NCBI GenBank assembly: GCA_049521795.1
Contig: JBEKOM010000007.1
Span: forward strand, 1 to 64,000
From: Candidatus Bathyarchaeia archaeon
GTDB lineage: Archaea > Thermoproteota > Bathyarchaeia > Bathyarchaeales > Bathycorpusculaceae
Direction: 5' to 3'
DNA length: 64,000 bases
The notes under the pieces were generated by a model. The model saw only the letters and a list, made by a program, of their open reading frames with translations. It did no database searches and was not told the DNA's origin. Positions 591 through 64,000 of this stretch are shown piece by piece. The number at the start of each line of letters is the position of its first letter. The first letter of the stretch is position 1. The translations under genes were made by a program, and so were the position numbers.

Positions 591-800
591 GTAGAAGAAT
601 GATGATAATCAATGTACTATTCAAGCGGGCATATGCCTCAAAGGTCTTATAAAAACTTAAATGATAATTGATCGTAGGAAAGAAACTGTAGCGCGCGCCC
701 ACTTTTGATAGTGCGCGCTTGTTCAATATCTGAGGAATGAAAAAGAAACATGGATTCCCAGAATCGCAAACCTAAGCTAAATTATGCCGCGCTACCTTTC

Positions 801-938
801 TTATTCTTTTTTCTCGATTCTTTTCTTTATTCCCTTCCCAAAGTCTTCTACGGCTTTAGCACCTTTCTTGAGGCCTTCCCCGACTGCTTCACCAGTTCTC
901 TCAGCAGCCCCTTCAACTTTTTTCTTCTTGTCCGGCAT
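801..938 (-). CDS. Small hydrophilic Lys/Glu/Gly-rich protein (45 aa, CsbD/hydrophilin-like)
   Basis: Read manually: MPDKKKKVEGAAERTGEAVGEGLKKGAKAVEDFGKGIKKRIEKKE*, with GAGGTGA SD at 950-944. Below ORF-track cutoff. Confidence 0.75.
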   Translation of the reverse strand: MPDKKKKVEGAAERTGEAVGEGLKKGAKAVEDFGKGIKKRIEKKE

Positions 939-1108
939 TCCTATCACCTCTATTTCCAAGTCAATATTTGCGTATTTAAGCGTATGTGACTGTGAGGCTA
1001 CAAAAGAGTCGTACGGTTCGAGCCGCTAGGGCATTCTATCAGGGGCACCTAGGCCCAAAAGCTTAAAGCATGTGCTTCGAATAACGTATTTTCAAAAAGG
1101 AGGGAAAA

Positions 1109-1405
1109 ATGAGTATGAAACCCAAAGAGTTTATGGACAAAGATGTTTATGCCAAAGACGAGAAAATAGGCAAAGTCAAAGAACTCAGAATAGATCCAGA
1201 AAGTTGGAAAGTAACTCATCTTGAAATCGAATTGACCAAGGATGTAGCTGAATCTGTGCTTGGCGCAAGGAAAGGTCATGTACGAAACATGTTGGACACT
1301 TCAGCCCTGGAGAGTGGGGTTGCACGCTGGACAGACAGAGGGCTAAACATAAGGGTCCCAAAAACAGAACTTCACGCGTACCTAAAACCAGTTGTTGAAA
1401 CTTAG
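1109..1405 (+). CDS. PRC-barrel domain protein
   Basis: KDVYAKDEKIGKVKELRIDPESWKVTHLEI pattern, with GGAGG SD. Confidence 0.85.
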   Translation: MSMKPKEFMDKDVYAKDEKIGKVKELRIDPESWKVTHLEIELTKDVAESVLGARKGHVRNMLDTSALESGVARWTDRGLNIRVPKTELHAYLKPVVET

Positions 1406-1537
1406 TTGGGCGCGTGCTTTCTTTCACATTCTCTCTCTTTCTGCCCATACAAACAAAAACAAACAAAGAGTGCAAAGCTTATATTGAAACGACTCTCTAA
1501 CTAGAAACCCTAGGAATCCTAAGAGGTGATTGAACAA

Positions 1538-1651
1538 ATGGGTCGCGCACGCGCGGGTAGTATCAGCGGATGGTTAATTTCTGCTATTGTCGTAGTGGTA
1601 TTAATAATAGTGTTTGTCGTTGTCCTCAGAATACTTCTTCACTTGATATAA
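1538..1651 (+). CDS. Small single-pass membrane protein (37 aa)
   Basis: MGRARAGSISGWLISAIVVVVLIIVFVVVLRILLHLI*, with GAGGTGA SD at 1523-1529 and a TATA-like CTTATAT upstream. Confidence 0.65.
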   Translation: MGRARAGSISGWLISAIVVVVLIIVFVVVLRILLHLI

Positions 1652-1939
1652 GACAAACTGAAAGAATCCTATGAGCAGAAAACTTGTACCTTTTTCTTCT
1701 TTTGTCATTCGCTTGGTCATGATTTAGTCGCGCGCTATGATTCGTCTCCAAAACGGAGAGTGCCAAGCAGCTCAGACAAGTTGTAATTGTCCACTGCCCA
1801 TTTAACGATTACTTTGACGCGTCACTGTCAACTCTAGTGTGCCCTATCGCGCGCGCGACAACCCTGCGGCAAAACGCTGCCGTGGTCCAGTGACAAGTTT
1901 TTAATAGAGCATTGACATGGTTATTTCGAAGTGAAGGTT

Positions 1940-2326
1940 ATGCCGGAGAATGAAGTGGTCCTTAAACCGGTTCCTAGAGAGAAGGCGTTTTATTTCTACA
2001 ACGACATAGGAAACTACACTGGTAAGAGTGCTGCTTCGCTGAAAGAGTTTGCCGAGAATGTTGAGGCTGTAGATGTGAAATCCCTGGCGTTTCATCTTCG
2101 GCGAGGGGACTTTGAAAACTGGATAACCGGAGTCCTGAAAGATGAAGAGTTGGCAAAACAAGTCAGGGATGAGTTACGAGCAACCAATTTGAAAGGCGAA
2201 GATCTTCGTAATCGACTTCACTCGATTGTTGCGACACGTCTGGAGCAATTGAAGCATACACCTGTTCCTGCGAAAATTCCTGACCCGAAGATGCAAGCCC
2301 GATGGGGAAAGAATGTGACGCGCTAA
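1940..2326 (+). CDS. DUF5752-like protein
   Basis: VPREKAFYFY...GKSAASLKEF...SLAFHLRRGDFENWI motif. Confidence 0.75.
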   Translation: MPENEVVLKPVPREKAFYFYNDIGNYTGKSAASLKEFAENVEAVDVKSLAFHLRRGDFENWITGVLKDEELAKQVRDELRATNLKGEDLRNRLHSIVATRLEQLKHTPVPAKIPDPKMQARWGKNVTR

Positions 2327-3141: not shown

Positions 3142-3246
3142 GCCGAGGTAGCTCAGCCTGGGAGAGCGCTCGTCTCGCTAACTTAAACAGCGAGGGCGAA
3201 GCTGAAGACCGAGTCGTCGCCGGTTCAAACCCGGCCCTCGGCACCA
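3142..3246 (+). tRNA. tRNA-Phe(GAA) with 28-nt intron at position 30/31 (3173-3200), CCA encoded
   Basis: Acceptor GCCGAGG/CCTCGGC. Removing 3173-3200 restores CTCGG-CTGAAGA-CCGAG. BHB-type motif at the junctions. Confidence 0.92.
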
Positions 3247-5991: not shown

Positions 5992-6069
5992 GCGGGCGTA
6001 GTCTAGTTTGGTCTAGGACATCAGCCTGCCACGCTGACGACCCGGGTTCAAATCTCGGCGCCCGCACCA
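5992..6069 (+). tRNA. tRNA-Gly(GCC), CCA encoded
   Basis: GCGGGCG/CGCCCGC acceptor, TCAGC-CTGCCAC-GCTGA anticodon arm, GTTCAAAT T-loop. Confidence 0.95.
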
Positions 6070-6132
6070 CAGAACCCTTTTCTCCAGAGAAAGCGCGCGC
6101 TATTCTCAGTTCCTCAAAAGAAAAAAGGGATG

Positions 6133-7746
6133 CTACTTGCGTCGTCTCTTGAAGATTATGAGAGCTGCTACTGCCCCAACTGCTAGCAATGCTACCGAGT
6201 ATTTTGAGAGTGTGTCTTCAACGGCTGCGACCAAAATCGCTAGTGTGTTGACAGGCTCAACCCTTCCGCCAACAACGGGTTTCGGCGGAGTAGGCGTAGT
6301 TGGCGACAGCTTTATTGTTACGGCTGTGTTGCTGGTCACTGAAACTGTGATTGCTGATGGTGAATATCCTGACGCGCTGGCGTTAACCTGGTAACTGCCC
6401 GCTTGAACGCTGTTGAACGTTATCTGTCCGTTGCTTCCAGTGTTGCCCGAGTCGGTTTCTGGGCCAACAGCTTGGACGGCTGCACCTACAATTGGGTTGT
6501 TGTTGGTTGCGTCTTCTACTGTCACCGTAAGCGAGTAGGTGACCCTGACTGGAATGAACTCGAGAATAAGAACGGCAAAAGCAGTGCTTAGGTCTAGGGA
6601 GAAATTACTTGATTCATCCCAAGGGCTCCAATTGATCCAGTGACCATCAAGGCTCTGGTTCCCAACAAGTGAGTCTGCGTATTGGCCTGTGCCGTTATAC
6701 CACTCAACCCCGTTAGTACCGTCGTAGTTTGCTACGAACTGTATTGGTGGCGTCGCCTCCCTGAATGCTTTCATCGCAGCGTACATAGCATATAAGTTGC
6801 CAATGTTAACATTCCAACTAGCGTCGTTAACAAGCCACATCTTGTTAATGTAACCTTCAGCGGCTATGATACTAGCGTTAGTCGAGGGTGCGCCGATATA
6901 GGTCAATTGCAAGATTCCTGATGACGTGTCGGCAACACCGCCATAGACAACGTGGTCATAGTAGCCAAATGAACCGTACTGACTGTTTGAAGTTGAGTTT
7001 CCAGTAAGATCCTGGCACGTTGAAACCCAGTAATTCAGTTCGTTTGCAACAAATGGTGGCGCGTTTATTCCCCACAGTTCAGCCGCCATTAAACCTAGAA
7101 CAGGCCATGCAGTATTTGAATTGTCGGAGCTTCCTGAGTTCTCACTGTACCCCCATCCACCTCTAGCCGTGCCGCTGCTTGGGTCATTTTGGGCCCAGGA
7201 AATGTAGTCCACTATGTCAACCACGATGTCGTGGTACGTGCGGACACCCAAAGGTCCAGCGCTCGTGACGTTTGTTGGCGCATTAGAGCCCACTATAGCC
7301 ATGAGCACTATCGGAGTCTCATAGGTTGGGTAACCATCTGATTCCCAGGCTACTCCTATGCCGTTTCCGTTAGTGTCCGGGTTACCTGCTGTTTGGTTGC
7401 TTATCGTTATGTTTTCGCCATGTGCAAACAGAAAGTTTAATCCATTTTGGACGTTCGTACTGTAGGGATCTGTCGCGTTCCAACTGTAGTGGCCTTGGTT
7501 CTCGAAGGCTAGAACCGCCGTCGCTGTAGACGCTATTGGAAACAAACCGGCTCCCCAGGATCCGTCTATTTGAGATTGTGTGATGTTCAAGTATGCAAGG
7601 CCTTTTGTGATTGCTGTGTTTATGCTTATTTGAGAAGCTGCATTTGCTAGAGGCATTCTCACGTTCATCAGTAGTATTCCAGCGAGAATGAAAACAGCAA
7701 TTAGTTCCCTGATGTACACTTTCAATTTCCTTCCCCTATTTTGCAT
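6133..7746 (-). CDS. Secreted surface protein: prenyltransferase/squalene-cyclase-like alpha-alpha toroid, carboxypeptidase-regulatory-like Ig domain, C-terminal TM anchor
   Basis: Signal peptide, Q..DGSW/GGWGY repeats, TGSNGQITFNSVQAGSYQVNAS, VGG motif + TM + KRRRK. Confidence 0.75.
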   Translation of the reverse strand: MQNRGRKLKVYIRELIAVFILAGILLMNVRMPLANAASQISINTAITKGLAYLNITQSQIDGSWGAGLFPIASTATAVLAFENQGHYSWNATDPYSTNVQNGLNFLFAHGENITISNQTAGNPDTNGNGIGVAWESDGYPTYETPIVLMAIVGSNAPTNVTSAGPLGVRTYHDIVVDIVDYISWAQNDPSSGTARGGWGYSENSGSSDNSNTAWPVLGLMAAELWGINAPPFVANELNYWVSTCQDLTGNSTSNSQYGSFGYYDHVVYGGVADTSSGILQLTYIGAPSTNASIIAAEGYINKMWLVNDASWNVNIGNLYAMYAAMKAFREATPPIQFVANYDGTNGVEWYNGTGQYADSLVGNQSLDGHWINWSPWDESSNFSLDLSTAFAVLILEFIPVRVTYSLTVTVEDATNNNPIVGAAVQAVGPETDSGNTGSNGQITFNSVQAGSYQVNASASGYSPSAITVSVTSNTAVTIKLSPTTPTPPKPVVGGRVEPVNTLAILVAAVEDTLSKYSVALLAVGAVAALIIFKRRRK

Positions 7747-7870
7747 GGGTTGTTTATCCGTTTTAACTATTAAGCTTTGCAGTATTGCAAACAGGCCCGA
7801 AGAGCTGCGATCCAGAAAACTGCATGATTAGCGCGCGGCAGTATCTGGAGCTTCTGCTTGTGTGCGTGCG

Positions 7871-9424
7871 CTAGGGCTTGACAACTTCGGCGTTTTCGGT
7901 GCTGATCCCACGCCAGTTTATCTTGTATCCGAGTGCTTCTAAAACGCCTGTTGCGTCTTCTACTCCTTCCGTCTCAATCGTCTCAGCGGCTTCGGACAGG
8001 CTGATTCGCCCCTTCTGCCTGATTCGCTCATCGATTGTTCTCCCGATCTGTTCAAGCCGGTCTCTTCTGACCAGCTTGTCGGACATCGCAACGTAGTCCT
8101 GAGGAGGTTTTTCAGTCAGCGCTGCCTTGACAGCTTCTGAAGAAACCCCGATTCTCGCCGCCAACTCTTCAAAGTTCACGATGAGCTCAGTGAACACTAT
8201 GGGCAGTTCTCTGACGAGGCTAGTCTGCTTCGCTTTGACCTCTCGAAACGCGTGTTCCAAGTAGCGAAGAACCGGCGATAACGGGACTCTGTCTCGATAG
8301 TACATGACGTCCAATCTTCCCTGCTTACCCAGGTTGGACAGTTTTTCGCATGCCAGCTTCTGGTCGACGGCCACGAGCATGTCCACGTCGGTCTTCTTCA
8401 GTTTCTCAACCTTCCGCAGCAGGTACTCGACGGTCCAGAATCCAACGATCTCCAGGTACACTCTGGTCCCGTCTTTCTCAAGTGAGAAGTCGGGGATGAT
8501 AACTTGTCTGCCCGCCAGAACAGGCTCAGGTTCCCTCTTCAAAGTCCACCCGGATGTCAGGGCCTGAAAACGTGTGGCGAAATCTTCTTCAACAGTGCTG
8601 TCGAAGGACCATTGTGCTGGTTCTGTTTTCCTCATCAGAGCGCGGTGTTTCCAGCTTTCGATCTTGAAGTTGCATATCTCGTTGGTGTATTTCCACAGGA
8701 TCTTCGCCTCAACAGTCCATTCTGGGCTGGCAACTATGATGGGAACAAGTTTGGCTGTGGCCGTCCCGTACCTTCTGGTCAGCTTGAAGAGGCTTGCTGG
8801 ACCGTCTACCTTCACCCAAATGCGCTCGGCTTGATAGGCCTCGTAGATCAGCCCTAACCTCTTGATGGAACGGAAGATCTGCTGCCAGTTGCCCGACGAC
8901 GTGAACCTTACCTCGGTAGAGTCGAAAAGAAGCGTCTGCGTCAAGCTGAGGTTGTACTCTTGAAGCAGCTCTTGAGCAGACAAAGGTTCAAACTCCTCCA
9001 ACACCAGCTCAGTGTCCAAGTCGGCGTGGAAGAACTGCTCAACCGTCGCCGCGTCTATCTTCAATTCTGAGGCCACATCTTCAACTATTCGGGCTCTGTG
9101 TTCCTGCGTGGTGGGCAACCCGAGTCTTCCGGCTGTCTGAAAGATCCTCCTCCTCAGGTTCACGGCGTTGATCTTGTCGTCACAGCTGAAGCGGCTTCTC
9201 CTATCGAGAAGAAGGGACAGACCTCGAACGAAACGATAATCGTAGCCTTCATCCTCAAACCCGTCGACGAATTCCTTCACGACGCGCTTCTTCTCACCGA
9301 CGTGGCGCTTGTAGACTTCAACGAGACTGTTAGCGACTTCCAGCTTGTCGGCGGACAGCGCAGCGTAACGCGGCCAGACCGTGCCCTTTCTTCTCCAAAC
9401 AGCTAGAAGCTCGCTCGGAAGCAT
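7871..9424 (-). CDS. bax1: Bax1 / DUF790 family endonuclease
   Basis: YNLSLTQTLLF, VDGPASLFKLTRRYG, FDS.VE..F, IPDF..EIVGFWT (PD-(D/E)xK). Directly downstream of XPB. Confidence 0.9.
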   Translation of the reverse strand: MLPSELLAVWRRKGTVWPRYAALSADKLEVANSLVEVYKRHVGEKKRVVKEFVDGFEDEGYDYRFVRGLSLLLDRRSRFSCDDKINAVNLRRRIFQTAGRLGLPTTQEHRARIVEDVASELKIDAATVEQFFHADLDTELVLEEFEPLSAQELLQEYNLSLTQTLLFDSTEVRFTSSGNWQQIFRSIKRLGLIYEAYQAERIWVKVDGPASLFKLTRRYGTATAKLVPIIVASPEWTVEAKILWKYTNEICNFKIESWKHRALMRKTEPAQWSFDSTVEEDFATRFQALTSGWTLKREPEPVLAGRQVIIPDFSLEKDGTRVYLEIVGFWTVEYLLRKVEKLKKTDVDMLVAVDQKLACEKLSNLGKQGRLDVMYYRDRVPLSPVLRYLEHAFREVKAKQTSLVRELPIVFTELIVNFEELAARIGVSSEAVKAALTEKPPQDYVAMSDKLVRRDRLEQIGRTIDERIRQKGRISLSEAAETIETEGVEDATGVLEALGYKINWRGISTENAEVVKP

Positions 9425-9428
9425 GCTC

Positions 9429-10778
9429 TCATGCCTCCAAGCCCTGGTTCTGATGCCGTTTTCGGCTCATCCTCGCTTCCACGGTCTCCTTGGAGACCAT
9501 CTCAACAAGCCGCGCCTGCTTTCCCTCAACCTTTCTGAGCAGTCTTCCAAGCCTTTGAACGTACTCTCGTGCGCTTCCCGTTCCGCTGAGGATGAAGCCC
9601 AATGAAGCTTCAGGAACGTCCACGCCTTCATCGAGAACCTGAGAGGTCACTACCACCCTGTAGCTTCCGTTTCTGAAGTTTTCCAGGATCTCGCGGCGCT
9701 CCTGCTTCGGCGTTTGATAAGTCACGGCAGGAATCAGGAACCTGCGACTTATTCTGTAGACCAGGTCATTGTGCAGCGTGAAGATCAGCGTCCTCTCACC
9801 CTCGTGTGCTTCAAGCTGCTTGGCAAGCAGGTCCAGCTTTGCCTCGGAGTTCAAAGCCACTCTCACCGCGCGGTTTCTGGCCAGAAGAGCCTCTCGCGCC
9901 CGCTTGTCTCTTCCAGTGCTCATTATGAACCTCTGAAAGTCCTCAGCGTTCCTCAGAACGATCCCGTTCTCCCTCAGATAACCGTTGAAAACGCTCATTT
10001 CATCATCGTAGATCCGCTGCTCCTCAGGAGTCAGCTCAACGTAAACCTTCTCATACGTGTAGGGCGAAAGATGCTTTCCCGCCAACTCTTCGACGTCCAC
10101 GGTGTAGACGAGGTCGCCGACAAGGGCTGGAAGAAGCGAGTGCCTTTGGTCGCTTCTCTCGTACGTCGCCGTCAGACCCATACGGTAAGGCGCAATGTAC
10201 ATCTCAGCGATCTGCATGTAACCCGGCGAAGCCAAGTGGTGAACCTCATCGAACACCACGAACATGAACCTGTTGCCCAGCACGTCGGCCTGCAGATAAG
10301 CCGAATCGTACGTGGACACGGTCAGCATCCTCACCGTGGATTCGCCGCCGCCCATGGTTCCCGCTTCCACGCCGAAGCATTCTTGCACTCTTCTTTTCCA
10401 CTGGTCTATCAGGTCTAGCGTTGGAACAACGACCAGAGTCTGCGTCTTCAACAAGCTCATTGCCTTCAAAGCGATGAACGTCTTTCCAGCCGCGGTCGGT
10501 AGCACGAGAATTCCTCGCTTGCCGGCCCGTCGCCATCTAGACAAAGCCTCGCTCTGGTATGGACGCAGCTCAACCCCGCTGCCCAGAGGTTCGACGGGAG
10601 GGAGGTTCGGAACGCTGTCCCTAAACTGAAGCGTGCTTTCCCTCAGATAGGACAGCACGTCCCGGTAATGCGAGGCCTTGACCCTGTAGCACCCTACTCT
10701 TGGGTCCCACTTTCCGTAAGGAGTCCCAACGTCCCCTCGCAGCAGAAGGGTCCCCTTGTCAAACAACAAATCGATCAT
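9429..10778 (-). CDS. xpb: XPB/Rad25 SF2 helicase
   Basis: LRPYQ, LPTAAGKT, FDEVHH, GLTAT, VLDEGVDVP, QRLGRLLR. Confidence 0.93.
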   Translation of the reverse strand: MIDLLFDKGTLLLRGDVGTPYGKWDPRVGCYRVKASHYRDVLSYLRESTLQFRDSVPNLPPVEPLGSGVELRPYQSEALSRWRRAGKRGILVLPTAAGKTFIALKAMSLLKTQTLVVVPTLDLIDQWKRRVQECFGVEAGTMGGGESTVRMLTVSTYDSAYLQADVLGNRFMFVVFDEVHHLASPGYMQIAEMYIAPYRMGLTATYERSDQRHSLLPALVGDLVYTVDVEELAGKHLSPYTYEKVYVELTPEEQRIYDDEMSVFNGYLRENGIVLRNAEDFQRFIMSTGRDKRAREALLARNRAVRVALNSEAKLDLLAKQLEAHEGERTLIFTLHNDLVYRISRRFLIPAVTYQTPKQERREILENFRNGSYRVVVTSQVLDEGVDVPEASLGFILSGTGSAREYVQRLGRLLRKVEGKQARLVEMVSKETVEARMSRKRHQNQGLEA

Positions 10779-10794
10779 GCGTCAACGACGACCT

Positions 10795-10989
10795 TATTCT
10801 CGAATCGACTTCAAAACCCTTTTGCCGACATAAGTCACGTCATAAGCTTTCTTGCAGTTCTAAAGGGAAACCGAGATGCCGCTCCGTGTCAAGCTCTTCA
10901 GAAGACGTGACAAACATGTGTCGAGACTGCATTGAGGGGATGCCTTTACGAGTGTCGCCGAAGTCAAACAGAACATTCTTAACCTGCAT
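10795..10989 (-). pseudogene. HAD-superfamily hydrolase remnant (frameshift, internal TAG, 3' truncated)
   Basis: MQVKNVLFDFGDT, then shifted frame VKASPQCSLDTCLSRLLKSLTRSGISVSL*NCKKAY, similar to the N-terminus of the intact HAD at 14762-15520. Confidence 0.7.
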
Positions 10990-11026
10990 CTTCACGTACT
11001 CTCTTTCCAATTTACTAGTGGGCGTG

Positions 11027-11057
11027 GAGTAAAGTTTTGTCCCCAAACCCCAAACCT
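11027..11057. repeat. Dispersed core site copy A (GAGTAAAGTTTTGTCC) plus CCCCAAACCCCAAACCT arm
   Basis: 14/16 identical to the cores at 29028 and 31078. The arm is the reverse complement of the AGGTTTGGGG flank at 29021. Confidence 0.6.
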
Positions 11058-11194
11058 TTTAGAATTGTATTATGTTGCGATGTATTATTTTGCAATAGCG
11101 CGCGCGAGAGAATTTGGGTAAGATTCTGAAAAAGTCTTTTAAGGGTTTGTCTAGAGTCGCTATTCAACCTTAGGTGTCTCGGTGAGGCCTCACG

Positions 11195-52500: not shown

Positions 52501-52612
52501 AATGGGCAAGTATCCATATTCTTCCAATGGACGGCTAGGAAACCTATAGCCGCTTCAGGATACATCTGGATATTACTGGAACAGGATAAGGATAGGATAG
52601 CGAGTTGATGCC

Positions 52613-52705: not shown

Positions 52706-52739
52706 ACAATGCGCGCGCGAAAGCTGAAGTTGATTCATA

Positions 52740-53513: not shown

Positions 53514-53565
53514 AGCGCGCGCTGAAGGCAAAAAACGGGCGCTAACCAGAATTGTTCTTTATTGA

Positions 53566-53940
53566 TTATTTCTTCGGTTCGGTCTTTGCTGGTTCTTTTT
53601 CTTCAACTGTCTTTAAAGCCCCTTTTAATTCGACTTTAATCTCCCTCAGCAGGTTGACGCCTAAGGATCCGATTTTTCCACCAGCCCACATGATGAAAAC
53701 CATGAGTACGAACCAAACAAGCATGCCGGCAGCCTTGTTCATGTCTTGGCCTGAAATCACCCGCGAACCGTTTGCGGAAATGTCTTGAAAACTGAACAGT
53801 TTCGGAGGAGCGTTCATGCCTGTGAAAACAAATATCATCTCAAAGACCGCGAAGAAAATCACAGCGACACCTACGGCCAACAAAACGTAGGCCACAGTCC
53901 TTCTGTTTTTCCAGTTCAACTTCACACGGTTCAGCCTCAC
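53566..53940 (-). CDS. Two-TM hypothetical membrane protein
   Basis: Two hydrophobic helices, charged tail. Confidence 0.7.
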   Translation of the reverse strand: MRLNRVKLNWKNRRTVAYVLLAVGVAVIFFAVFEMIFVFTGMNAPPKLFSFQDISANGSRVISGQDMNKAAGMLVWFVLMVFIMWAGGKIGSLGVNLLREIKVELKGALKTVEEKEPAKTEPKK

Positions 53941-54024
53941 AAACCACTACCAAGTCATTTACTATAAAAGTCTGCATGCAAAAACCTTAACACGCGCGTG
54001 CACGCAGCGCGTGCGCTCTGCGTC

Positions 54025-54773: not shown

Positions 54774-54820
54774 AGCGCGCGCTCTTAAACATTGAACAGA
54801 AAAAAAAAGAGGGATAGAAT

Positions 54821-56458
54821 TTACCAGCGTTTCTTGAACAGGCGTCGGGATGCAGCAATTGCAGATGCAGCGGCGAAGAGTCCTAGAGCAATCCATGGAG
54901 CCATCAGCTGAAGCGTGCCTATCGGACTGAGAGCCTGCATCGTAATCGGTGCCCATTCTCCGCCGACCGCAGGGGTAGTGTAGTGAGCCGTCGCGGTGTG
55001 CGGTGACATGTGCACGGTTATCGAGTTTACGCCAATACCCTGCGATGTGCCGTCAACGTCCCAGTACAAGAAGTTCCCAAACGTCCGAGTGGAAGGACTT
55101 TCCAAAGTAGGCGGCGCCGTGAGTGGCACAGCCGAACCTCCGTCGTACCAGCCCGCACCAGGAATCGTAGGGGTCAAACCCGATGGACTCGTCAGCACCG
55201 TCAAATAGTACTGGGTCGTCCAGACTGCAGTTGCGGTTTTGGGTCCGCTCATGATGATGCCAGCGCTCGTCAAACCTGTTCCTGAAGCGTCACCGCTCCA
55301 GCTGGTGAATACGTATCGGATTCCTGTACCGCCAGAGATCGGACCTCCGGATGAAAGTGTTGCGTAAGCTGTAGAACCACTGGGATACCATCCTCCGCCG
55401 CCCGGCGTGTCGTAAGGCGACGTAACGGTCAAGAGGTACTGCGTCTGCCAGGTTGCTGTCTCTGTTATCGGGTTGCTCATAGTCACTGTGGAAGACGATG
55501 CTGAACCCGTGTATCCGCCAGTGTCGCTGCTTGTCCATCCTGTGAACACGTATTGGATTCCCGTTCCTCCAGAAACCGTTGTCGGGCTGACACTGAAGGG
55601 CACTCCGGTGGTGCCATCATTATACCAGCCTGCGCCTAAAGCTGTGCCGTACGCGCTATTTACAGTCAGTTGGTACTGCGTCTGCCAGTTCGCTGTCTCT
55701 GTTATGTTGTTGTTCATTATTACCGAATTAGTCGATAACGGACCAGTGTATCCTCCCGTGTCACTGCTTGACCATCCGGTGAAGATGTACTGGACGCCCG
55801 TTCCACCGCTCACTGTAGTCGGAGTTATGCCGAAGGTTGCTGAGGACCCAGCGGGATACGAGCCCTGACCACTAGCTGTACCGTGGCCTCCGTTGTTAAC
55901 AGTTAGCTGAGCTGGCACGACGACTGCGATGAAAGTGGTCTGATACGTCTCTTTCCAGACGACTACGGCCAATAACTGGCCTGGGGCTGGCTCGAAACCG
56001 CCGCCGTAAGCAGTTGCGTCGTTTACCATGGCTTTACCAGCCGCGGACGAGGGCATAGCATGCCCATCAATATAGTACCATATCGCGTCTTGAACGTCTG
56101 TCCAAAGGCCCTGTGGGTGGTTTATTATGTAGTTTACTCTGTTCCAGTCACCTGGGTACACAGTTTGGGCATAACTGGAGTATAACGTGACGCCGTCGAG
56201 GGTTTCGCCGCTACTTATGAAGTGACTTTCATCGTTGCACCACCCGGTGTAAGCTTCGTTGGTGACGTCGTAGCCTAGAGGCACGTAGGAGAGCGTTATA
56301 GTCCAATAGCTGTTAGATCCAGGGTAATCGAACTTCGCGCTCACTGTCCCTGGCGGCAGGTTTATGGAAGGACCTGCTGCTCTTGCAAAGCGAGTGATTG
56401 ACAGGATGAACATCAGTGTGAGCAACGCGATCAGTGTGTTTCTTGCGTGGTTTTTCAT
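54821..56458 (-). CDS. Surface adhesin-like protein: putative thioester domain, 4 InlB-B/Flg_new-like repeats, VGG motif, TM anchor
   Basis: GWCND...VQDAIWYY, repeated Y.FTGW..TA.W.TQY.LTV units, TM + RRLFKKRW. Confidence 0.75.
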   Translation of the reverse strand: MKNHARNTLIALLTLMFILSITRFARAAGPSINLPPGTVSAKFDYPGSNSYWTITLSYVPLGYDVTNEAYTGWCNDESHFISSGETLDGVTLYSSYAQTVYPGDWNRVNYIINHPQGLWTDVQDAIWYYIDGHAMPSSAAGKAMVNDATAYGGGFEPAPGQLLAVVVWKETYQTTFIAVVVPAQLTVNNGGHGTASGQGSYPAGSSATFGITPTTVSGGTGVQYIFTGWSSSDTGGYTGPLSTNSVIMNNNITETANWQTQYQLTVNSAYGTALGAGWYNDGTTGVPFSVSPTTVSGGTGIQYVFTGWTSSDTGGYTGSASSSTVTMSNPITETATWQTQYLLTVTSPYDTPGGGGWYPSGSTAYATLSSGGPISGGTGIRYVFTSWSGDASGTGLTSAGIIMSGPKTATAVWTTQYYLTVLTSPSGLTPTIPGAGWYDGGSAVPLTAPPTLESPSTRTFGNFLYWDVDGTSQGIGVNSITVHMSPHTATAHYTTPAVGGEWAPITMQALSPIGTLQLMAPWIALGLFAAASAIAASRRLFKKRW

Positions 56459-56625
56459 ATTCTCTCTTTCTCCCTTCTCCTTCACTTTTCGCTAATCAAT
56501 TACCTATTGATATAGCTATTAAATTTTATGGAACGCTCTTCTATTTGTCGTGAGCGGAAGCGAACAACACCGCAGATGTATCACACGCAAACTTCGGCCA
56601 GTCAACTGATGTTTCACCCGCGCGC

Positions 56626-56744: not shown

Positions 56745-56769
56745 CGCGCGCATCAAATATAGGTGAATG

Positions 56770-57471
56770 TCAGATGCACTTCACTTCACCTATTGGCTTT
56801 CCTTCCAGCTTCACAATTCCATTATCAACTTTTATGTGAAACATTAGAGAATCCCAAAGCAGCCCAATCATGCTTAACTTTGTTCCATCGTGAAGTTGAT
56901 AAGACCCACTTGGGTCTACTTCAAACTTGATTTTTCCATACTCTGACCAACCTAAATCGCTGGAGTATACCGACTTCTTTGGGAACCAGTAAGTCTTCCA
57001 TCCACTACTGCTGGTGTATTCCGAGTATTCGATCGGGAGGATCTCAGGAGGGGCTGCAAGAGAGGATTCGATGTTTCTTTTGGCATAACAGGGCATCACG
57101 AACCATTCTTCACAGGTGTGATAGAGTAGTCCCACGTTGAGACTGGATAACAGAGTGTCAATGTTAAACAGTGGAAAAGGTGAAAACGAACAGAGATGAA
57201 CATGGTTGAAATCAATCTTGGAGATTTCTCTTGCACATCCTTCTCTCAGTATGAAACCCACGTCTTCCAAAACCTTCGGAACCACCTTGTTCTCAACCTT
57301 CAGGGATAACAGCTTCTCATGTTTCAGTAAGAAGATCTCCTGAGCAAATCCTGGGTCGGAAAACTGTCTCTCGTCTAACTGCTGGAGTCTGCTCAACACA
57401 TATTCCATCAGTGCCTGCTCACCTGGGCGTATGTGTCTCTTCTCAATCGAGAACTCCAAGCTCATCATCAC
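56770..57471 (-). CDS. Hypothetical protein
   Basis: 233-aa ORF, no motif recognised. Confidence 0.65.
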   Translation of the reverse strand: MMMSLEFSIEKRHIRPGEQALMEYVLSRLQQLDERQFSDPGFAQEIFLLKHEKLLSLKVENKVVPKVLEDVGFILREGCAREISKIDFNHVHLCSFSPFPLFNIDTLLSSLNVGLLYHTCEEWFVMPCYAKRNIESSLAAPPEILPIEYSEYTSSSGWKTYWFPKKSVYSSDLGWSEYGKIKFEVDPSGSYQLHDGTKLSMIGLLWDSLMFHIKVDNGIVKLEGKPIGEVKCI

Positions 57472-57541
57472 TCAAGTCGTACGCGTCAAATCACAAGGTG
57501 TGTTGTGTTCATGCTCTGATTATTATGACTTGTGCGCGCTA

Positions 57542-57597: not shown

Positions 57598-57700
57598 TCA
57601 GGAAAACTTTCACCTGCATCAGTTTTCAAAGTCCTCCCTTTCTGGTGACGCGCGCGCTAAGCCTGCGCGCTACGACCAATTGAATTTCGAGTGGTAGTTC

Positions 57701-58135
57701 TCATGGTTTTGGTTTTAGCAGTCTTGAGTTAATGATTTTGTTTGCTGTGTTGTGGAGTTTTTGATCTGCAGTGTACAGTGTGCCGTTCAGTTTCTGCGTT
57801 GCTGCCACGTAGAGTGAGTCGTAGATTGTTATGTTTTGGGTTAAGGCTATTTCTGTTGTTGCCTCTTTGAGTTCACGCGTTGTAAGAATGCCAAGTCCGT
57901 CGTATATTTTGGTGAGGTCGTCTATCGTGGGGTTTGTTTCTTCTGGTCTTAGGTCTTTGTGTATGTTTGTATGTTTCCATATGGCGTTTAGGCCTCCGGC
58001 TAAGGCAATGTCTACTGTGTAGAGGGTGTAGCCTTTTTTCAGTAGGTTGGTGATGGTTGCTCTGGCTCGTTTAGAGCCGGGTTCGTTCATGACGAGTTTT
58101 ATGATTATGTTGGAGTCGAGGATCAGCTTCGGCGT
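57701..58135 (-). CDS. vapC: VapC-like PIN-domain toxin, non-canonical start (ACG at 58135 or CTG at 58126)
   Basis: LILDSN, IYDSLYVA, LYTADQKL. The second conserved acidic position appears to be Gly (ALAGGLNAIW). Confidence 0.85.
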   Translation of the reverse strand, partial: TPKLILDSNIIIKLVMNEPGSKRARATITNLLKKGYTLYTVDIALAGGLNAIWKHTNIHKDLRPEETNPTIDDLTKIYDGLGILTTRELKEATTEIALTQNITIYDSLYVAATQKLNGTLYTADQKLHNTANKIINSRLLKPKP

Positions 58136-58344
58136 TCTCTGTCCTCCCTGATGAGGATTGTTGAGTCTGTTTTTGTTTCCCTCTTTTGTGTTCTTGATTC
58201 TATTTCTTGAAGTGTTTTTATCAGTTCCATTTGCCTGACTCTTTCTTCGAGAAAATTCCTGATTTCTTGGCTCCATTCTGCTGGGTTTTTTTCCATTTTT
58301 TCTTTGAGTTCACGCGTTAAGCGTATTGTGAACGTTGTGGACAT
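58123..58344 (-). CDS. VapB-like RHH antitoxin
   Basis: STTFTIRLTRELKEKM...WSQEIRNFL...LIREDRE, overlapping the PIN gene. Confidence 0.82.
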   Translation of the reverse strand: MSTTFTIRLTRELKEKMEKNPAEWSQEIRNFLEERVRQMELIKTLQEIESRTQKRETKTDSTILIREDRERRS

Positions 58345-58741: not shown

Positions 58742-58962
58742 ATTTTTCCCATAAGATTAAATGCCTTGACCTTTTTAAGGATGCTTTAGCGCGCGCGTAG
58801 AACGATAGAAGCAGGGGATCGGAAGTTTTTGGAAAGTGTGGCTGGCAAAGTTCGCCGTTTCCCAAGTTGAAGACTGAAGAATGGATAGTTAATGGGGGTT
58901 GGGTTATTGCATCGCAGAAGGGGCTTGTCAGAGAGCGCTATTCTGTTTAGAAATCGTGCTGC

Positions 58963-59555: not shown

Positions 59556-59907
59556 TGGAGTTCGCCATTTATAAGTATATCGTACTTACTTGTACTTATG
59601 ATTTGCTCCCAGCTGCTTGTGAGCGCGCGCGCACGCTGGGAGCAGAGCGATCATGCGGAGCAATGCGTGAATTGTTACGTGTTTGAGGCGTCTCGTTTTT
59701 CGCGCGAGTTGGGAGAGCTGTGTGGAGACGATCTTGAGGCCTGCGCGGGTTCAATAGGCTTGTGAATTTGGAACCAGCAGCTTTGCATGTTCTGGCTCTT
59801 GAGTGAATTTGCTGTCGGGTCGTGCATGGTGTTTGGGAAGTTCTGCCAGTTGGATGATTTGCTTTTTGTTAGAGTCTGTCTGATGCGGGATTCGTTCCGG
59901 AGCCTGC

Positions 59908-61386: not shown

Positions 61387-61457
61387 CAACGCCTCTGAAA
61401 AACAGGAACAAATCCTTAAAGCCGAAATGCACACTTTAGTTAGAGCCGTGCCCTCGT

Positions 61458-62699
61458 TTGTTTGACCCCGTCACACTAGCGCTCATAATCGCCGGAGCCA
61501 TCATCATAATAGGCTTTCTCAGCAACTACCTGCTCGAACGCAAGGGTCTACCAGACATGCTTTTCCTCATCGTCCTAGGCATACTGGTCGGACCTGCAAC
61601 AGGATTGGTAGACGCAAGCACAATCATGGGCTTTGCCCCCTACTTGGCTGTTCTGGCCCTGGTCTTCATACTGTTTGACGGCGGAATGGCAATGAACATC
61701 TACCACGTCTTCTCCGAAACCCTCAGAGCAGCCGTCCTGGCCACAGCAGGCTTCACACTAAGCACAATCGCTTCAAGCCTGCTCATCTACTTCCTGCTAA
61801 TTCCAAGTTTCCCGTTTCTTTACGCCTTGTTGTTCGGAACAATTGTCGGAGGCAGCAGTAGCATAATCGTCATGTCCTTGGTATCAAGAATCAAACTCAG
61901 CGAAAAGGGCTCAACACTCCTACGCCTAGAATCAGCCCTCAACGACATATTATGCATCGTGCTGTCCCTCGTCATAATCGAAATAATAACACTTGGCGGA
62001 GCCGTCGACATACCGACGATCGCTAGGTCACTGGCAAGCCGTTTCAGCATAGGCGCCATGCTGGGAATAGTCATCGGCGTCGGTTGGCTCGCCATACTCA
62101 AAAGAATAGTCAAAGCGTCCTACTCCTACATGCTGACGCTTGGGATTGCACTCCTCGCATACGCGCTGTCTGAAACCCTGGGAGGAAGCGGACCATTGTG
62201 TTCACTGCTCTTCGGCATGATGCTGGGAAACGAGAAAGCAATCTACGGAATCCTCAGAATGAAAAAACCACGGGACCAAGTCGTTGACCCTGGATTGAAA
62301 CGGTTCGAATCCGAAATAGCCTTCCTGCTCAGAGCATTCTTCTTCGTTTACATAGGTCTCATCGTCACACTGCCCAGAGTCGCCACAGTTGTGGTTGGAG
62401 CAGCACTTGCTCTGTTCCTGCTTCTGATTAGATACGGCGTCGTCAACCTTGCAACCGTCAAGAGCAAGCTGACCGAAGAACGAGGAATAATGAGTGTGCT
62501 GCTTACAAGAGGCTTAGCATCAGCCGTACTGGCGACACTGACCCTGCAATACGCTGACCCCGTGAAATATCCGGGCGTTGGAGCCCTCTTCCAGCAGTTG
62601 TACCCGCTCTACATCAGCATGACCGTCGTCGTGATACTGGCAACGGCGCTGATCGCAACTGTGGGAATTCCAGTCCTTCAATGGAGAACAAAGCAATAG
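61458..62699 (+). CDS. Cation:proton antiporter (CPA1/NhaP-like)
   Basis: ILFDGG, LESALND, FFFVYIG, RGLASAVLA. Confidence 0.9.
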   Translation: MFDPVTLALIIAGAIIIIGFLSNYLLERKGLPDMLFLIVLGILVGPATGLVDASTIMGFAPYLAVLALVFILFDGGMAMNIYHVFSETLRAAVLATAGFTLSTIASSLLIYFLLIPSFPFLYALLFGTIVGGSSSIIVMSLVSRIKLSEKGSTLLRLESALNDILCIVLSLVIIEIITLGGAVDIPTIARSLASRFSIGAMLGIVIGVGWLAILKRIVKASYSYMLTLGIALLAYALSETLGGSGPLCSLLFGMMLGNEKAIYGILRMKKPRDQVVDPGLKRFESEIAFLLRAFFFVYIGLIVTLPRVATVVVGAALALFLLLIRYGVVNLATVKSKLTEERGIMSVLLTRGLASAVLATLTLQYADPVKYPGVGALFQQLYPLYISMTVVVILATALIATVGIPVLQWRTKQ

Positions 62700-62729
62700 C
62701 TCGGCGCGCGCTAGGATATTCTGAAACAA

Positions 62730-63242
62730 ATGTTAAATTCTCCAAGTTTCATACGTATGGAAATGTCCGACATGATGTTGCAAATGGATTCCAGTCAAGA
62801 AGAGACGTTCCGTCTGTTGACGCATTATTTTGCCGTTAGGCGCGAAGAAATATTGGGTTCCAACCCACCTTCATACGTCAAAGCAATAGTTCCAAGGGTC
62901 CTGTCGCCCCTCTCAGAAGGCAAGGCCGAAGCGACTATAACAAGAAGGGATGGTGGGAGTTATGTTAACATCAATTTTGACTTCAGAAAGGGATATGTCG
63001 AAACTTTTGTTTTGGCAATCGCCATATTTGTCGCCCCGATCCTTTCTCTCGTTACATATTTCACATCAAGCGATTATTACGTGTTATTTGTTGATCTCCT
63101 AGTCGTCCTAGCGGGCGTTGCTGGCGCTATGGCGCTTGAAGGTTACAATGTCCACATCACAAAAAAAAGGCTCATAGATGAATTGCGGCTTATCAACGAA
63201 TTCATCAAGTTTGCCCAACCACAACCCCCGCCGCCTGACTAG
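62730..63242 (+). CDS. Two-TM hypothetical protein
   Basis: Soluble N-domain, 2 TM helices, Pro-rich end. Confidence 0.6.
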   Translation: MLNSPSFIRMEMSDMMLQMDSSQEETFRLLTHYFAVRREEILGSNPPSYVKAIVPRVLSPLSEGKAEATITRRDGGSYVNINFDFRKGYVETFVLAIAIFVAPILSLVTYFTSSDYYVLFVDLLVVLAGVAGAMALEGYNVHITKKRLIDELRLINEFIKFAQPQPPPPD

Positions 63243-63270
63243 CGCGCGCGGCGCGCGGGATCTCGCTAGT

Positions 63271-63780
63271 CTACCTTTTTCTCTTGATGTAAATACCTAG
63301 TCCCAAGAGCATTGCTGCCAGCGGTCCCACGGTGCCTACCACTGGAAAGTCGGGTATTACGAAGAACGATGTTGCTTTGGTTGATATCACGAAGTCTACC
63401 TCTTCTTTTGTCTTGCCATCTGGGCTTTGGAACAGTGCTTGTACTCCCCAGTCTCCGACTGCGGAGACGGAGTGGGTCGAGCTGAAAGTGTTCACTGGGT
63501 TGCCTTTGTACAGCGCGCCTGCAACGGGTGTGCTGTCGACTTCAGGGCCGAATGCTATGCCTTGGTTGGGGTATTTCCATATGAAGGTTACTTGATACAC
63601 ATCCATGTCTGTTGTATATGCAGTGACGACCACGTTGGAGCCTGGTGGAACATTGATTCCATGAAAGTTGCTGTCGACTGCGTAACCGGACGCTAGGCTT
63701 GGGTAAGCTGCATAGGCTACTGTTAGTGCGCTAAGCATCAGAACACCTGCTATGATGAGTATTGCAGTTATTTTCTTCAT
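63271..63780 (-). CDS. Secreted Ig-like protein with PEF-CTERM-like anchor
   Basis: Signal peptide, FFVIPDFP + TM + KRKR. Confidence 0.75.
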   Translation of the reverse strand: MKKITAILIIAGVLMLSALTVAYAAYPSLASGYAVDSNFHGINVPPGSNVVVTAYTTDMDVYQVTFIWKYPNQGIAFGPEVDSTPVAGALYKGNPVNTFSSTHSVSAVGDWGVQALFQSPDGKTKEEVDFVISTKATSFFVIPDFPVVGTVGPLAAMLLGLGIYIKRKR

Positions 63781-64000
63781 CCCTATCTCCTTTAGATTAG
63801 AGTGGAGTCTCAACTTTATAATCCTATATAGAGGATAGTTCTAGCATGCACGCTCAAACGCAAGAAAGTCTGAACAGGCGCATACTGTTGAAAGTGCTCG
63901 GCGCACCTCAAATGCGCCAAACATTTCTTATTTGTAAATGGTTTATATTCTGCCTAATTCTGATAGGGCGCGCTATTCATCGCGCGCGCGTGTAGGGCGC

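Follow-up and report, generated by a model that had tools for sequence, protein, structure and literature searches.

Short palindromes of alternating C and G lie between the genes of this archaeal genome (G000) in such numbers that one has to ask whether they are a signal maintained by the organism or the residue of some process acting on its DNA. An earlier note on the stretch analysed here (the window, 64,000 nucleotides) had taken the first view and proposed a HIP1-like or att-like site, a pre-existing recombination or cleavage signal through which genes would be swapped as modules.

Abundance and form of the palindrome

In the window, GCGCGC occurs 64 times (17.3 +/- 4.4 in shuffles) and CGCGCG 52 times (15.9 +/- 4.2), counts that were reached by 0 of 100 shuffles in either case. 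The maximal alternating-CG runs of at least 6 nt number 52, which by the crude gene calls made for the analysis comprise 40 intergenic, 2 overlapping a gene end and 10 coding, where ~40 and ~6 had been estimated before between and within genes. Markov-corrected counts extend this excess to the whole genome: across 2.44 Mb, no other 8-mer exceeds its order-1 expectation as strongly as GCGCGCGC (834 versus 69 expected, both strands), which has 364 intergenic copies against 5.5 expected (~66x) and 45 coding copies against 28.8 (~1.6x). For GCGCGC the genome-wide figures are 981 intergenic (10.4x) and 353 coding (0.75x), and the same counts revealed no comparable enrichment of other dinucleotide repeats or other 6-bp palindromes. 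The intergenic bias recurs in another genome of the genus, a complete one (417 versus 47).

The logo of the GCGCGCGC sites, t(40%)A(67%)-GCGCGCGC-T(74%)a(43%), gives the consensus tA-GCGCGCGC-Ta, with no conserved position outside this 12-bp core. In solo runs, the flank on one side is statistically independent of that on the other, so that a long target duplication is absent. Runs rarely exceed ~10 nt, the lengths in G000 being distributed as 543 (6 nt), 198 (7), 219 (8), 107 (9), 56 (10) and 7 (11 or more), and those of even length favour a G start and a C end (191 versus 28 among 8-mers, 45 versus 11 among 10-mers).

Contacts with stop codons, previously listed at 2330, 7871, 29902, 31820, 46865, 62704 and 63240, can all be read in the sequence. 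A 9-nt run (2330-2338) lies 3 nt past the TAA stop of ORF 1931-2326; the transition variant GCGTGCGC abuts the stop of a DUF790/Bax1-like gene (7871-9424, minus strand; TAG-CGCACGC at 7871), downstream of which there is also a taGCGCGCG run (7831-7837); ORF 29902-30954(-) ends in minus-strand TAG-CGCTA at 29902; the run at 31822-31829 is fused to the TAG stop (TAG-CGCGCGCT, 31820) of the metallo-beta-lactamase-fold ORF 31127-31822; and TAA-GCGCG is found at 46865. Towards the right end, a GCGCGCGC-ta run (62704-62711) sits 4 nt past the TAG stop of the Na+/H+ exchanger ORF 61458-62699, and two abutting runs, GCGCGCGCG and GCGCGCG (63242-63257), are fused to the TAG stop (63240) of ORF 62757-63242 in a convergent gap. 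Near further stops we find aGCGCGCGCt at 6093-6100, between tRNA-Gly (5992-6069) and the end of ORF 6133-7719(-), and at 53515-53522, beside ORF 53566-53925(-); taGCGCGCGCt at 54775-54782, past ORF 54821-56485(-); and two CGCGCGC runs at 56619-56625 and 56745-56751, of which the latter is separated by 19 nt from the stop of ORF 56770-57471(-), with three more (57534-57539, 57649-57657, 57665-57670) between this ORF and the PIN-domain ORF 57701-58276(-). Other sites are GCGCGCGC followed by TTTTTT (2414-2421), taGCGCGCGCG in the divergent gap 10778-11285 (11098-11106), two adjacent runs (GCGCGCG gt GCGCGCGCG, 31009-31026) between ORFs 29902-30954(-) and 31127-31822(+), taGCGCGCGCGta (58789-58797), a 10-nt run within a longer local palindrome (ctcccagc...gctgggag; 59623-59632), and GCGCGC plus a 10-nt run 7 nt apart (63968-63990).

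Placement, conservation and break-points

Runs are most frequent 0-50 nt past stop codons and their density falls from convergent (2.06/kb) to tandem (1.62/kb) and divergent gaps (1.13/kb). For an intergenic palindrome of 10-12 bp, such a distribution would suit a selected cis-element, whether a terminator or other 3'-end signal, a site for a dimeric protein acting in chromatin or as an insulator, or a sink for supercoils in Z-DNA form. We give this reading hardly any credence: runs also occur in divergent gaps, and oligo-T tracts (T5+) downstream of genes are unlinked to them (23% with a run, 25% without), which speaks against the terminator alternative raised before. Variants that keep the purine-pyrimidine alternation are what ordinary transition bias would produce. 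Where the flanks are at least 90% identical between two congeners, the identity of runs is 86.9% and their fully conserved share 45%, compared with 92.6% and 60% for control 8-mers; single run sites show no conservation beyond the control level, and purifying selection on runs is absent. The suggested involvement of 5mC fared no better, with 34 transitions against 30 transversions inside runs, no transition excess, and a C5-methylase in 2 of 11 genus genomes, not co-distributed with the motif.

The motif does concentrate in variable, accessory DNA, as had been proposed. Comparing G000 with its congener G001, intergenic run density is 2.65/kb where unaligned and 0.61/kb where aligned, and runs of at least 8 nt, at 1.48/kb in variable intergenic DNA, drop to 0.18/kb in conserved gaps, a further argument against a selected element. 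Window sites without alignment to G001 include an intergenic GCGCGCGC run (taGCGCGCGCcc, 691-698) with a second GCGCGC at 713-718, an intergenic 10-nt run (1848-1857), and a cluster of three (29309-29317, 29383-29389, 29410-29417) in a ~1.1-kb gene-free stretch. The gaps of the housekeeping block at 33-46 kb are indeed empty, the only two runs of the 33-46.8 kb interval (44086, 44907) being coding.

Break-points between congeners coincide with the motif, again in line with the earlier expectation. Homology ends within 5 nt of a run 120 times versus 30.6 expected (ratio 3.9; 1.2-2.0 for control words), and among 124 indels of at least 100 nt, 28 carry a run at the junction of the short allele, the chance rate being 3.2%. 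In the window, CGCGCG runs at 46893-46898, 52337-52342 and 53993-53998 are found 2, 6 and 3 nt from the ends of homology blocks with G001 (of 11.7 kb and 205 nt for the first two), the last being followed by the variants GCACGC and GCGCGTGCGC; taGCGCGCGCG (47921-47929), past ORF 46985-47797, lies in the gap between two blocks; and a 132-nt stretch (48450-48583) is missing from G001, which has ...attaGCGCGCGCtac... there (junction G001:2088820). For a dispersed repeat (52555-52719) with further copies on contigs C10, C11 and C4, homology stops at a CG run each time; in the window this run is GCGCGCGCG at 52711-52719.

Such coincidence is what module swapping at pre-existing sites would predict, and some junctions fit it well: in 10 of the 28 run-bearing indels the long allele has a run at its boundary, with clean cases of two runs versus one at G001:1252997 and G001:1559002, and of 963 dispersed repeats other than MITEs, 13 are bounded by runs on both sides (3.4 expected), one of them a 585-bp, 100%-identical cassette with a YhbY-domain gene at two loci. 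Part of the module idea thus stands, since some run-bounded gene segments are duplicated elsewhere in the genome. The run as a pre-existing, maintained signal is not supported, given that its sites are not conserved and that the longer allele lacks a run at either boundary, and any IS or MITE there, in 18 of the 28 junctions. Moreover, conservation ends at 12 bp, too little for recombinase binding, and the one enzyme class examined, the C5-methylase, is not co-distributed; we therefore regard swapping at pre-existing sites as distinctly unlikely. At the junctions whose longer allele has none, runs look newly made with the deletion; together with the boundaries that cut a gene (11 of 28), these run-free alleles indicate that run and deletion appear together.

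New runs at joints might also be made by repair itself, with a LigD-type primase-polymerase or another polymerase tailing broken ends with alternating G and C, so that annealed and ligated tails leave a (GC)n joint at any deletion or captured fragment and the IS and MITE ends are old joints. The run-free junctions and cut genes just described would follow directly, as would two deletions polarised by a third genome, whose removed segment of ~1 kb has no run in either of the other two genomes, a polarised 325-nt insertion that starts with a run, and a joint at G001:1768847 with 12 extra nt copied from nearby sequence. A review ascribes terminal-transferase activity to LigD POL (PMC8656161). A full end-joining operon also co-occurs with the trait: G000 encodes a PolDom protein (288 aa), Ku (281 aa) and a ligase-PE fusion (464 aa) at C5:41155-44209, and in the only genus of our genome panel that is rich in the motif, Ku is present in 8 of 11 genomes and PolDom in 9 of 11, as opposed to 2 of 30 each outside it at the family cut-off. 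Two outsiders with both genes, G016 and G040, nevertheless hold 1 and 0 copies of the motif, and the co-occurrence within one genus is therefore a single phylogenetic event. Addition of (GC)n by such polymerases was not found in the partial texts covered by our literature search. As this explanation also leaves unexplained the regularities of the mobile elements described below, we see it as rather unlikely.

An IS5-family element with the palindrome at its ends

An IS5-family insertion sequence and its ~190-nt MITEs terminate in the GCGCGC hexamer, which provides the palindrome with an ordinary source. In G001, a 1080-bp copy (L030:9080-10159) flanked by TA...TA has 24-bp terminal inverted repeats (TIRs) beginning with GCGCGC and a transposase (DUF772 + DDE_Tnp_1) split over two ORFs, while G009 has an intact 328-aa transposase copy at the end of a contig, with TA-GCGCGC as its flank. 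The TIR core has 51 matches in G001 and 22 in G000, and the hexamer keeps a fixed 6-nt distance from it at both ends of nearly every IS or MITE copy, a regularity that polymerase tailing does not account for. In a hand count over 25 paired MITEs, the run is preceded by A in 15 and by TA in 10, and followed by T at 17 of 23 scorable ends; solo GCGCGCGC runs resemble these flanks (A 67%, T at minus 2 40%, T after 74%).

Four sites (idx37, idx689, G001:1343061, G001:1534856) have a MITE or TIR element in one genome and a solo run in the other. Two of them, idx37 and idx689, show a run of 8-10 nt where the site is empty and CG on either side of the MITE where it is filled, as if palindromes of other origin were merely the target of the IS and its terminal GCGCGC a duplicated target; some IS do target sequences resembling their own ends. 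However, at idx217 and idx827 the MITE faces a virgin site without any run. The run is therefore part of the element, not of the target, and arrives with the insertion in a way that tailing of broken ends would not explain either. In addition, the terminal run of IS and MITEs is nearly always exactly 6 nt regardless of the site, while solo runs range from 6 to 10 nt, and targeting leaves the origin of ~1100 runs per genome unexplained, which makes it in our opinion highly improbable.

The TIR was found in the genus only. MITE copies in G001 are ~81% identical among themselves and therefore not young, live element ends account for only 20 of the 1130 G000 runs and 49 of the 1151 G001 runs, and TA flanks occur at only ~40% of ends, three observations that we count against excision as the source of the runs. 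Further points on that side are that G000 has the transposase as fragments only, none of its 138 contig ends having a TIR nearby, that G005 (39 motif copies; no TIR, no DDE_Tnp_1 match) and G008 (56 copies; no TIR) lack the repeat, and that end-joining-positive outsiders are motif-poor.

Proposed excision scars and their known relatives

Altogether, we find it somewhat probable that the palindromes are no maintained cis-signal but scars, left where a transposase cut the DNA and end joining closed the gap. Their source would be the terminal nucleotides of the genus-specific IS5-family IS and its MITE derivatives: the DDE transposase would excise the element, leaving a few terminal nucleotides (up to ~5) on each chromosomal flank, and a larger stretch between two element ends or pseudo-ends might be excised likewise. 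Being self-complementary, the (GC)n overhangs would anneal over 4, 2 or 0 nt and be sealed by the Ku, LigD-type polymerase and ligase-phosphoesterase kit of the genus, giving (T)A-GCGCGC / GCGCGCGC / GCGCGCGCGC-T(A). The run-length law fits two ends of at most 5 nt joined with these overlaps. The confinement of TIR and motif richness to the genus, where end-joining genes are also frequent, counts for this reading too. Polarised element-to-scar changes number zero, the four MITE/run polymorphisms being equally readable as insertions into older scars, and the 18 longer alleles free of runs and elements, with the two polarised deletions, mean that excision needs extra unseen steps, namely insertion followed by composite or pseudo-end excision.

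TA-targeting cut-and-paste DDE transposons of the Tc1/mariner type, such as Sleeping Beauty, leave excision footprints of comparable build (target TA, a few left-end nucleotides, a few right-end nucleotides, TA), which are likewise sealed by end joining, non-functional and subject to neutral decay. The archaeal element differs in belonging to the IS5 family and in its self-complementary (GC)n termini, with an excision that we infer; its runs outnumber live element ends roughly 20-50 to 1, and the putative scars are the most over-represented word of the genome. To our knowledge, excision that leaves a footprint has been documented in Tc1/mariner-type elements but not in IS5-family IS, and our literature search found no prokaryotic case.

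HIP1 (GCGATCGC) is also a hyper-abundant GC-rich 8-bp palindrome limited to one lineage, the cyanobacteria, and is described as conserved within and between ORFs, maintained by selection and served by cognate methylases (PMC5861425); the archaeal motif is depleted or near-neutral in ORFs. REPs are 20-40 nt long, conserved in sequence and mobilised as units by Y1 transposases. As with REP/REPIN and RAYT, our sites are short extragenic palindromes, often past stops and linked to a transposase, but they share only 10-12 bp and are associated with a DDE transposase. Archaeo-prokaryotic NHEJ, for which Methanocella paludicola is the model, consists of Ku, Pol, Lig and PE, and G000 encodes the four activities next to one another; we know of no (GC)n junction signature reported for this system, nor did our literature search turn one up. 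A further parallel is the IS-excision enhancer (IEE) of E. coli O157, an AEP-helicase fusion acting with IS629, which is described as an archaeo-eukaryotic-primase-type polymerase with microhomology end-joining activity, linked to IS excision and genomic deletions (PMC9943667). The archaeal candidate, in contrast, is a LigD-type PolDom that forms a protein of its own, has Ku and Lig-PE as gene neighbours, and has a putative link to the IS.

If the runs are such scars, they would accumulate where indels are tolerated, in intergenic DNA, chiefly just past stops, and in variable regions, and would then decay neutrally. Existing scars may in turn act as GC-rich microhomologies or pseudo-ends, leading to more deletions and cassette moves.

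An over-represented GC palindrome between genes

The source genome (GCA_049521795.1, G000) amounts to 2.44 Mb in 69 contigs with 48.6% G+C, on which our own crude caller placed 2422 genes (81% coding). In the window, GCGCGC is found 64 times and CGCGCG 52 times, against 17.3 ± 4.4 and 15.9 ± 4.2 copies in dinucleotide-preserving shuffles. An earlier note on this DNA had counted about 40 alternating-CG stretches of at least 6 nt (hereafter, runs) between genes and about 6 inside them, and our gene calls agree with this picture: 40 of the 52 maximal runs are intergenic, 10 lie in coding DNA and two extend over a gene end. All the stop-codon contacts that it listed can be seen in the sequence, and the intergenic gaps at 33-46.8 kb are indeed free of runs. 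The same bias persists genome-wide after Markov correction, with GCGCGC 10.4-fold over-represented between genes and at 0.75 of expectation within them (353 copies versus 470). The top over-represented 8-mer of the genome under an order-1 Markov model is GCGCGCGC (12-fold overall, 66-fold between genes), with 364 copies in 466 kb of intergenic DNA, where 5.5 were expected, and 45 in 1.97 Mb of coding DNA, where 28.8 were expected. No comparable enrichment was seen in this genome for (AT)n, (AC)n, (AG)n or other 6-bp palindromes. PMC4060949 describes alternating-CG words as generally under-represented in prokaryotes, and our literature searches retrieved no earlier description of this motif. 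Other genes of the window include tRNAs matched by Rfam at 2586-2680 (-, 95 nt), 3142-3243 (+, 102 nt, missed by ARAGORN) and 5992-6069 (+), the first two being probably intron-bearing archaeal tRNAs, and, at 7871-10778 (-), a DUF790 (Bax1-like nuclease) gene directly downstream of an XPB-type helicase gene, which we take to be the usual archaeal XPB-Bax1 pair.

The runs have a defined shape. Solo runs, i.e., those outside mobile elements, follow the logo t(40%)A(67%)-GCGCGCGC-T(74%)a(43%), in which conservation ends 2 nt out on either side and no further enrichment in T is seen. The lengths of all runs in G000 are distributed as 543 runs of 6 nt, 198 of 7, 219 of 8, 107 of 9, 56 of 10 and only 7 of 11 nt or more, and those of even length favour the phase that starts with G and ends with C (191 versus 28 for the 8-mers). 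This phase preference, the length cap and the lack of enrichment of any other dinucleotide repeat rule out microsatellite slippage as the main source, although length changes of 2 nt do occur in gaps aligned between G000 and the complete genome of a congener (G001). Runs are present in all types of gaps (convergent, 2.06 per kb; tandem, 1.62; divergent, 1.13), are densest between -1 and +50 nt after stop codons and lie within 100 nt past the stop of 325 of the 2422 genes. Most of them are solo and not part of a longer repeat: both flanks are unique in 494 of 676 intergenic runs (73%), which led us to reject membership in longer repeats, and repeated flanks accompany 16% of runs versus 11% of controls. 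REP/RAYT sequences differ in this regard, as they are conserved imperfect palindromes of 20-40 nt, whereas conservation here stops 2 nt from the run.

Several readings of the runs as a selected signal were weighed. Out of 925 gene adjacencies kept in G000 and G001, 810 have no run in either genome; 46 have one in both, 45 in G001 alone and 24 in G000 alone. In aligned gaps, runs with flanks of at least 90% identity are themselves 86.9% identical, and 45% of them are fully conserved, versus 92.6% and 60% for control 8-mers of the same gaps. The cyanobacterial HIP1, to which the earlier note had likened the motif, behaves otherwise, its sites being more conserved in related genomes than neutrality would predict (PMC5861425). 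The likeness stands for an octamer palindrome that exceeds its expected number by one to two orders of magnitude, and it fails both for site conservation and for the abundance within ORFs that HIP1 also shows. The same note listed variants keeping the purine-pyrimidine alternation and brought up CpG>TpG change as the signature of 5-methylcytosine decay. The one-mismatch variants are as expected from ordinary transition bias, and differences within runs showed no transition excess over background (34 transitions, 30 transversions). Moreover, a C5-methylase (PF00145) occurs in two of the 11 sampled genomes of the genus and is absent from the complete G001, which discards it as the cause of the motif. 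One of them lies in G000 contig C6 (18719-19702), as a C5 cytosine methyltransferase domain within an open frame of 683 aa; as only two genomes of the genus have such a gene, it probably belongs to a mobile restriction-modification unit. A role as terminator fares no better: archaeal intrinsic terminators have a 3′ oligo-T tract, a link that runs do not show, as tracts of at least five T within 100 nt downstream follow 23.2% of genes with a run and 24.8% of those without. Altogether, poor conservation, the rare C5-methylase and equal oligo-T frequencies argue against a selected signal, a 5-methylcytosine story and a terminator.

The motif is largely a trait of the genus. The word AGCGCGCGCT has 92 copies in G000 and from 7 to 114 in each of the 10 other sampled genomes of the genus, whereas the 30 genomes sampled from other genera in the family and order have 0-1 copies, apart from two that reach 5 and 9. 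As a control, the word read in reverse has 0-4 copies. In the single contig of the complete G001, GCGCGCGC is found 417 times between genes and 47 in coding DNA, the same bias as in G000.

Runs sit at new junctions

The full comparison was done with one genome pair, G000 and G001, which share 1592 reciprocal best hits with a median amino-acid identity of 92%. Divergent gaps of G001 flanked by orthologues that are not adjacent in G000 hold 1.56 runs per kb versus 0.35 for conserved adjacencies (48% versus 8% of gaps), and the same excess in broken adjacencies was observed for tandem (1.96 versus 0.92) and convergent gaps (2.26 versus 1.40), as well as within most gap-length classes. In this line, the density in G001 intergenic DNA that does not align to G000 is 2.65 per kb (1.48 if only runs of at least 8 nt are counted), versus 0.61 (0.18) in aligned intergenic DNA, and 37 of the 42 non-coding runs of the window lie in DNA unaligned to G001. 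The earlier idea that break-points in relatives coincide with the motif is borne out by the 384 ends of G001-G000 homology blocks found in run-holding gaps, where break-points taken from BLAST block ends are approximate: 120 of them fall within 5 nt of a run, versus 30.6 upon random placement in the same gap. This ratio of 3.9 drops to around 2 when decayed variants are tested in the same way, and to 1.2-1.3 with A6/T6, G5/C5 or all-GC palindromes of other kinds. Ends of dispersed repeats in G001 also coincide with runs (10.7-18.8% versus a background of 2.9%), and the repeat at 52555-52719 of the window ends at a run in all four copies. A low-complexity stretch rich in CGACGA/CCACGA units (52430-52500) lies in the window between two dispersed repeats.

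Simple indels of at least 100 nt between G000 and G001 gave a similar view, with a run at the joint of the short allele in 28 of 124 cases, for a chance rate of ~3.2%. In 18 of these 28 neither boundary of the long allele has a run within 10 nt, so that the run looks newly made at the junction. In 11 of the 28 a boundary falls inside a called gene, and the short allele is therefore a deletion that left a gene remnant. Four events could be polarised with 392 kb of a third genome (contig C1 of G002): a ~1-kb deletion in G001 with the joint GCGCGCGCG, a 1.1-kb deletion in G000 with the joint GCGCGCGC and a gene fragment left behind, a 325-nt insertion in G000 starting with GCGCGCGC, and a 2.3-kb insertion in G001 bounded by runs on either side. 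At least one of the two deletions is certainly a true one, because the root of three genomes cannot sit on both odd branches at once. No target-site duplication of 3 nt or more was seen around solo runs. Beside the GCGCGCGCG joint of a 1-kb deletion (G001:1768847) there are 12 extra nt repeating a nearby sequence (…ttggaaaatc / …ttgaaaatc), an addition that resembles the kind of templated insertion made by polymerase-assisted end joining.

Element ends and end-joining genes

The indel analysis also brought out a family of MITEs of ~190 nt, with the terminal inverted repeat (TIR) GCGCGC-WWGCNT-GTYCCTRAATTC. Seven of the 11 genus genomes sampled contain this TIR (74, 53, 22, 13, 4, 1 and 1 matches), and none of the 30 outside the genus does. 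The parent IS was reached through Pfam genome searches: in G001 (L030:9080-10159) it measures 1080 bp, with TA on both flanks, 24-nt TIRs at 9080-9103 (+) and 10136-10159 (-) that begin with GCGCGC and differ at 3 positions, and a transposase split into two ORFs with DUF772 (PF05598, 7.6e-11) and DDE_Tnp_1 (PF01609, 1.1e-11) domains, as in the IS5 family. A copy of the element in genome G009 (L153:313-1382), preceded by TA-GCGCGC, encodes an intact transposase of 328 aa (L153:388-1374); the contig ends inside the element, which suggests extra unassembled copies in that genome. In G000 only transposase fragments were detected. Self-BLAST of our own gene calls revealed no multi-copy transposase in G000 or G001, the Pfam genome search gave no match for DDE_3 (IS630-type) and no TnpB above the cut-off, and one MITE had no match in Rfam.

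The palindrome is the terminus of this IS and of its MITEs. Two MITE insertions face empty sites without a CG run, so that the GCGCGC hexamer belongs to the element, and in 25 paired MITEs an A precedes the run in 15, TA in 10, and a T follows in 17 of 23, matching the flanks of solo runs. The layout of the latter, tA-GCGCGCGC-Ta, likewise matches element ends brought together (TA-GCGCGC...GCGCGC-TA). TA stands on both sides of the one complete IS, and two virgin sites give no clear duplication. At four sites one genome has an element and the other a solo run; the same 392 kb of G002 polarised none of the four. Live element ends make up only 20 of the 1130 runs of G000 and 49 of the 1151 of G001. 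Collapsed MITEs as the only source of runs are a weakened explanation: the 16 aligned G001 copies (~140-210 nt; e.g., L012:7096-7312), with a conserved interior (a C-run, GGGTATCCTATATGATCCAAATATG...), are ~81% identical to each other and must therefore be long-lived. Larger inserts bounded by runs or TIRs carry ordinary gene cargo and no transposase. Among public viral contigs, the TIR was found at two loci, one of which (L151, 9 kb) contains a large-terminase gene, one MITE (~314-486) and 7 GCGCGC in gene gaps (0.96 expected), with no transposase; it probably represents the provirus region of some related genome, where the same scars gather.

[quoted passage not shown] In the archaeal model from Methanocella, Ku, an AEP-type polymerase, an ATP-dependent ligase and a phosphoesterase are encoded together. 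In G000, a LigD-type primase-polymerase (288 aa; PF21686, 1.7e-85) and Ku (281 aa; PF02735, 6.6e-41) are adjacent at C5:41155-44209 (L149/L150), and a third ORF of the operon (464 aa), read by eye, is a putative ligase plus PE. Ku is present in 8 and the polymerase in 9 of the 11 genomes, and the genomes that lack them are 65-89% complete. Beyond the genus, only 2 of 30 genomes have both genes, and these two hold 1 and 0 copies of the motif. Since the genomes are related, such co-occurrences at the genus level count as a single event. The PolX palm domain is absent from the genomes searched, and the many metagenomic homologues of the polymerase domain, labelled LigD, were uninformative on taxonomy. 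In two genomes (G001:957247-957985 and G005:C10:254436-255177) the LigD-type polymerase match is split into two adjacent pieces, which points to a frameshift, to loss of the gene's function or to an error in the sequencing. In E. coli, an AEP-type polymerase with microhomology end joining has been linked to IS excision and deletions (PMC9943667).

From proposed scars to possible swappable cassettes

How could the end of an element turn into a solo run? Excision footprints are well known for Tc1/mariner-type transposons. In the reading that we favour with some reserve, where runs are scars of transposase cutting sealed by end joining, the transposase would leave up to ~5 terminal nt on each flank, and these self-complementary overhangs would pair with an overlap of 4, 2 or 0 nt before being sealed. 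Such a process would yield joints starting with G and ending with C of 6, 8 or 10 nt, with a hard cap near 10, and odd lengths would come from a flank that by chance prolongs the run. The accumulation past stop codons, and the TAG made of TA and a G, would reflect the places that tolerate a joint. This reading is weakest in that the longer allele of most run-bearing deletions has no element, which would imply either unseen intermediate steps, such as composite or pseudo-end excision, or a bolder and less probable rival, in which the (GC)n joint is written by the polymerase of the NHEJ pathway.

Under the scar reading, the runs may not be inert. Each solo palindrome still has the two terminal pentamers of the IS, and could act as a pseudo-end, so that stretches from run to run, or from run to IS or MITE, would be cut and pasted by the transposase while Ku/LigD seals the donor, in a self-extending shuffling of ordinary genes as cassettes. 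Although we consider this extension rather improbable, it is essentially the system of swappable modules advanced in the earlier note, now driven by a transposase and archaeal NHEJ. In its favour, 13 of 963 non-MITE dispersed repeats of G001 have runs at both ends (3.4 expected), and scars may therefore be re-used as ends, allowing run-bounded segments to move. One of these repeats, at G001:715099-715683 (L046:15099-15683) and 1421017-1421601, covers 585 bp with a CRS1/YhbY-domain gene, is 100% identical in both places and has CG runs at both ends in each of them, which looks like a cassette recently moved or copied. Genes found in other run-bounded repeats are one with an Lrp/AsnC ligand domain and one of CxxCxxCC type.

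A practical warning is that an intergenic palindrome, however striking, does not necessarily serve as a signal for regulation or recombination. The genus is an outlier among prokaryotes for alternating-CG words, and probably one with a mechanistic cause. If the scar reading is true, these genomes would be a ledger of cut-and-rejoin events, where ~1100 tagged junctions per 2.4-Mb genome mark genes lost, gained or moved, and the rates and places of gene turnover would be directly measurable in an uncultured archaeal genus. To our knowledge, this would be the first prokaryote with an oligonucleotide spectrum dominated by transposon footprints, which would also offer indirect in vivo evidence that the rare archaeal Ku/LigD pathway is active.
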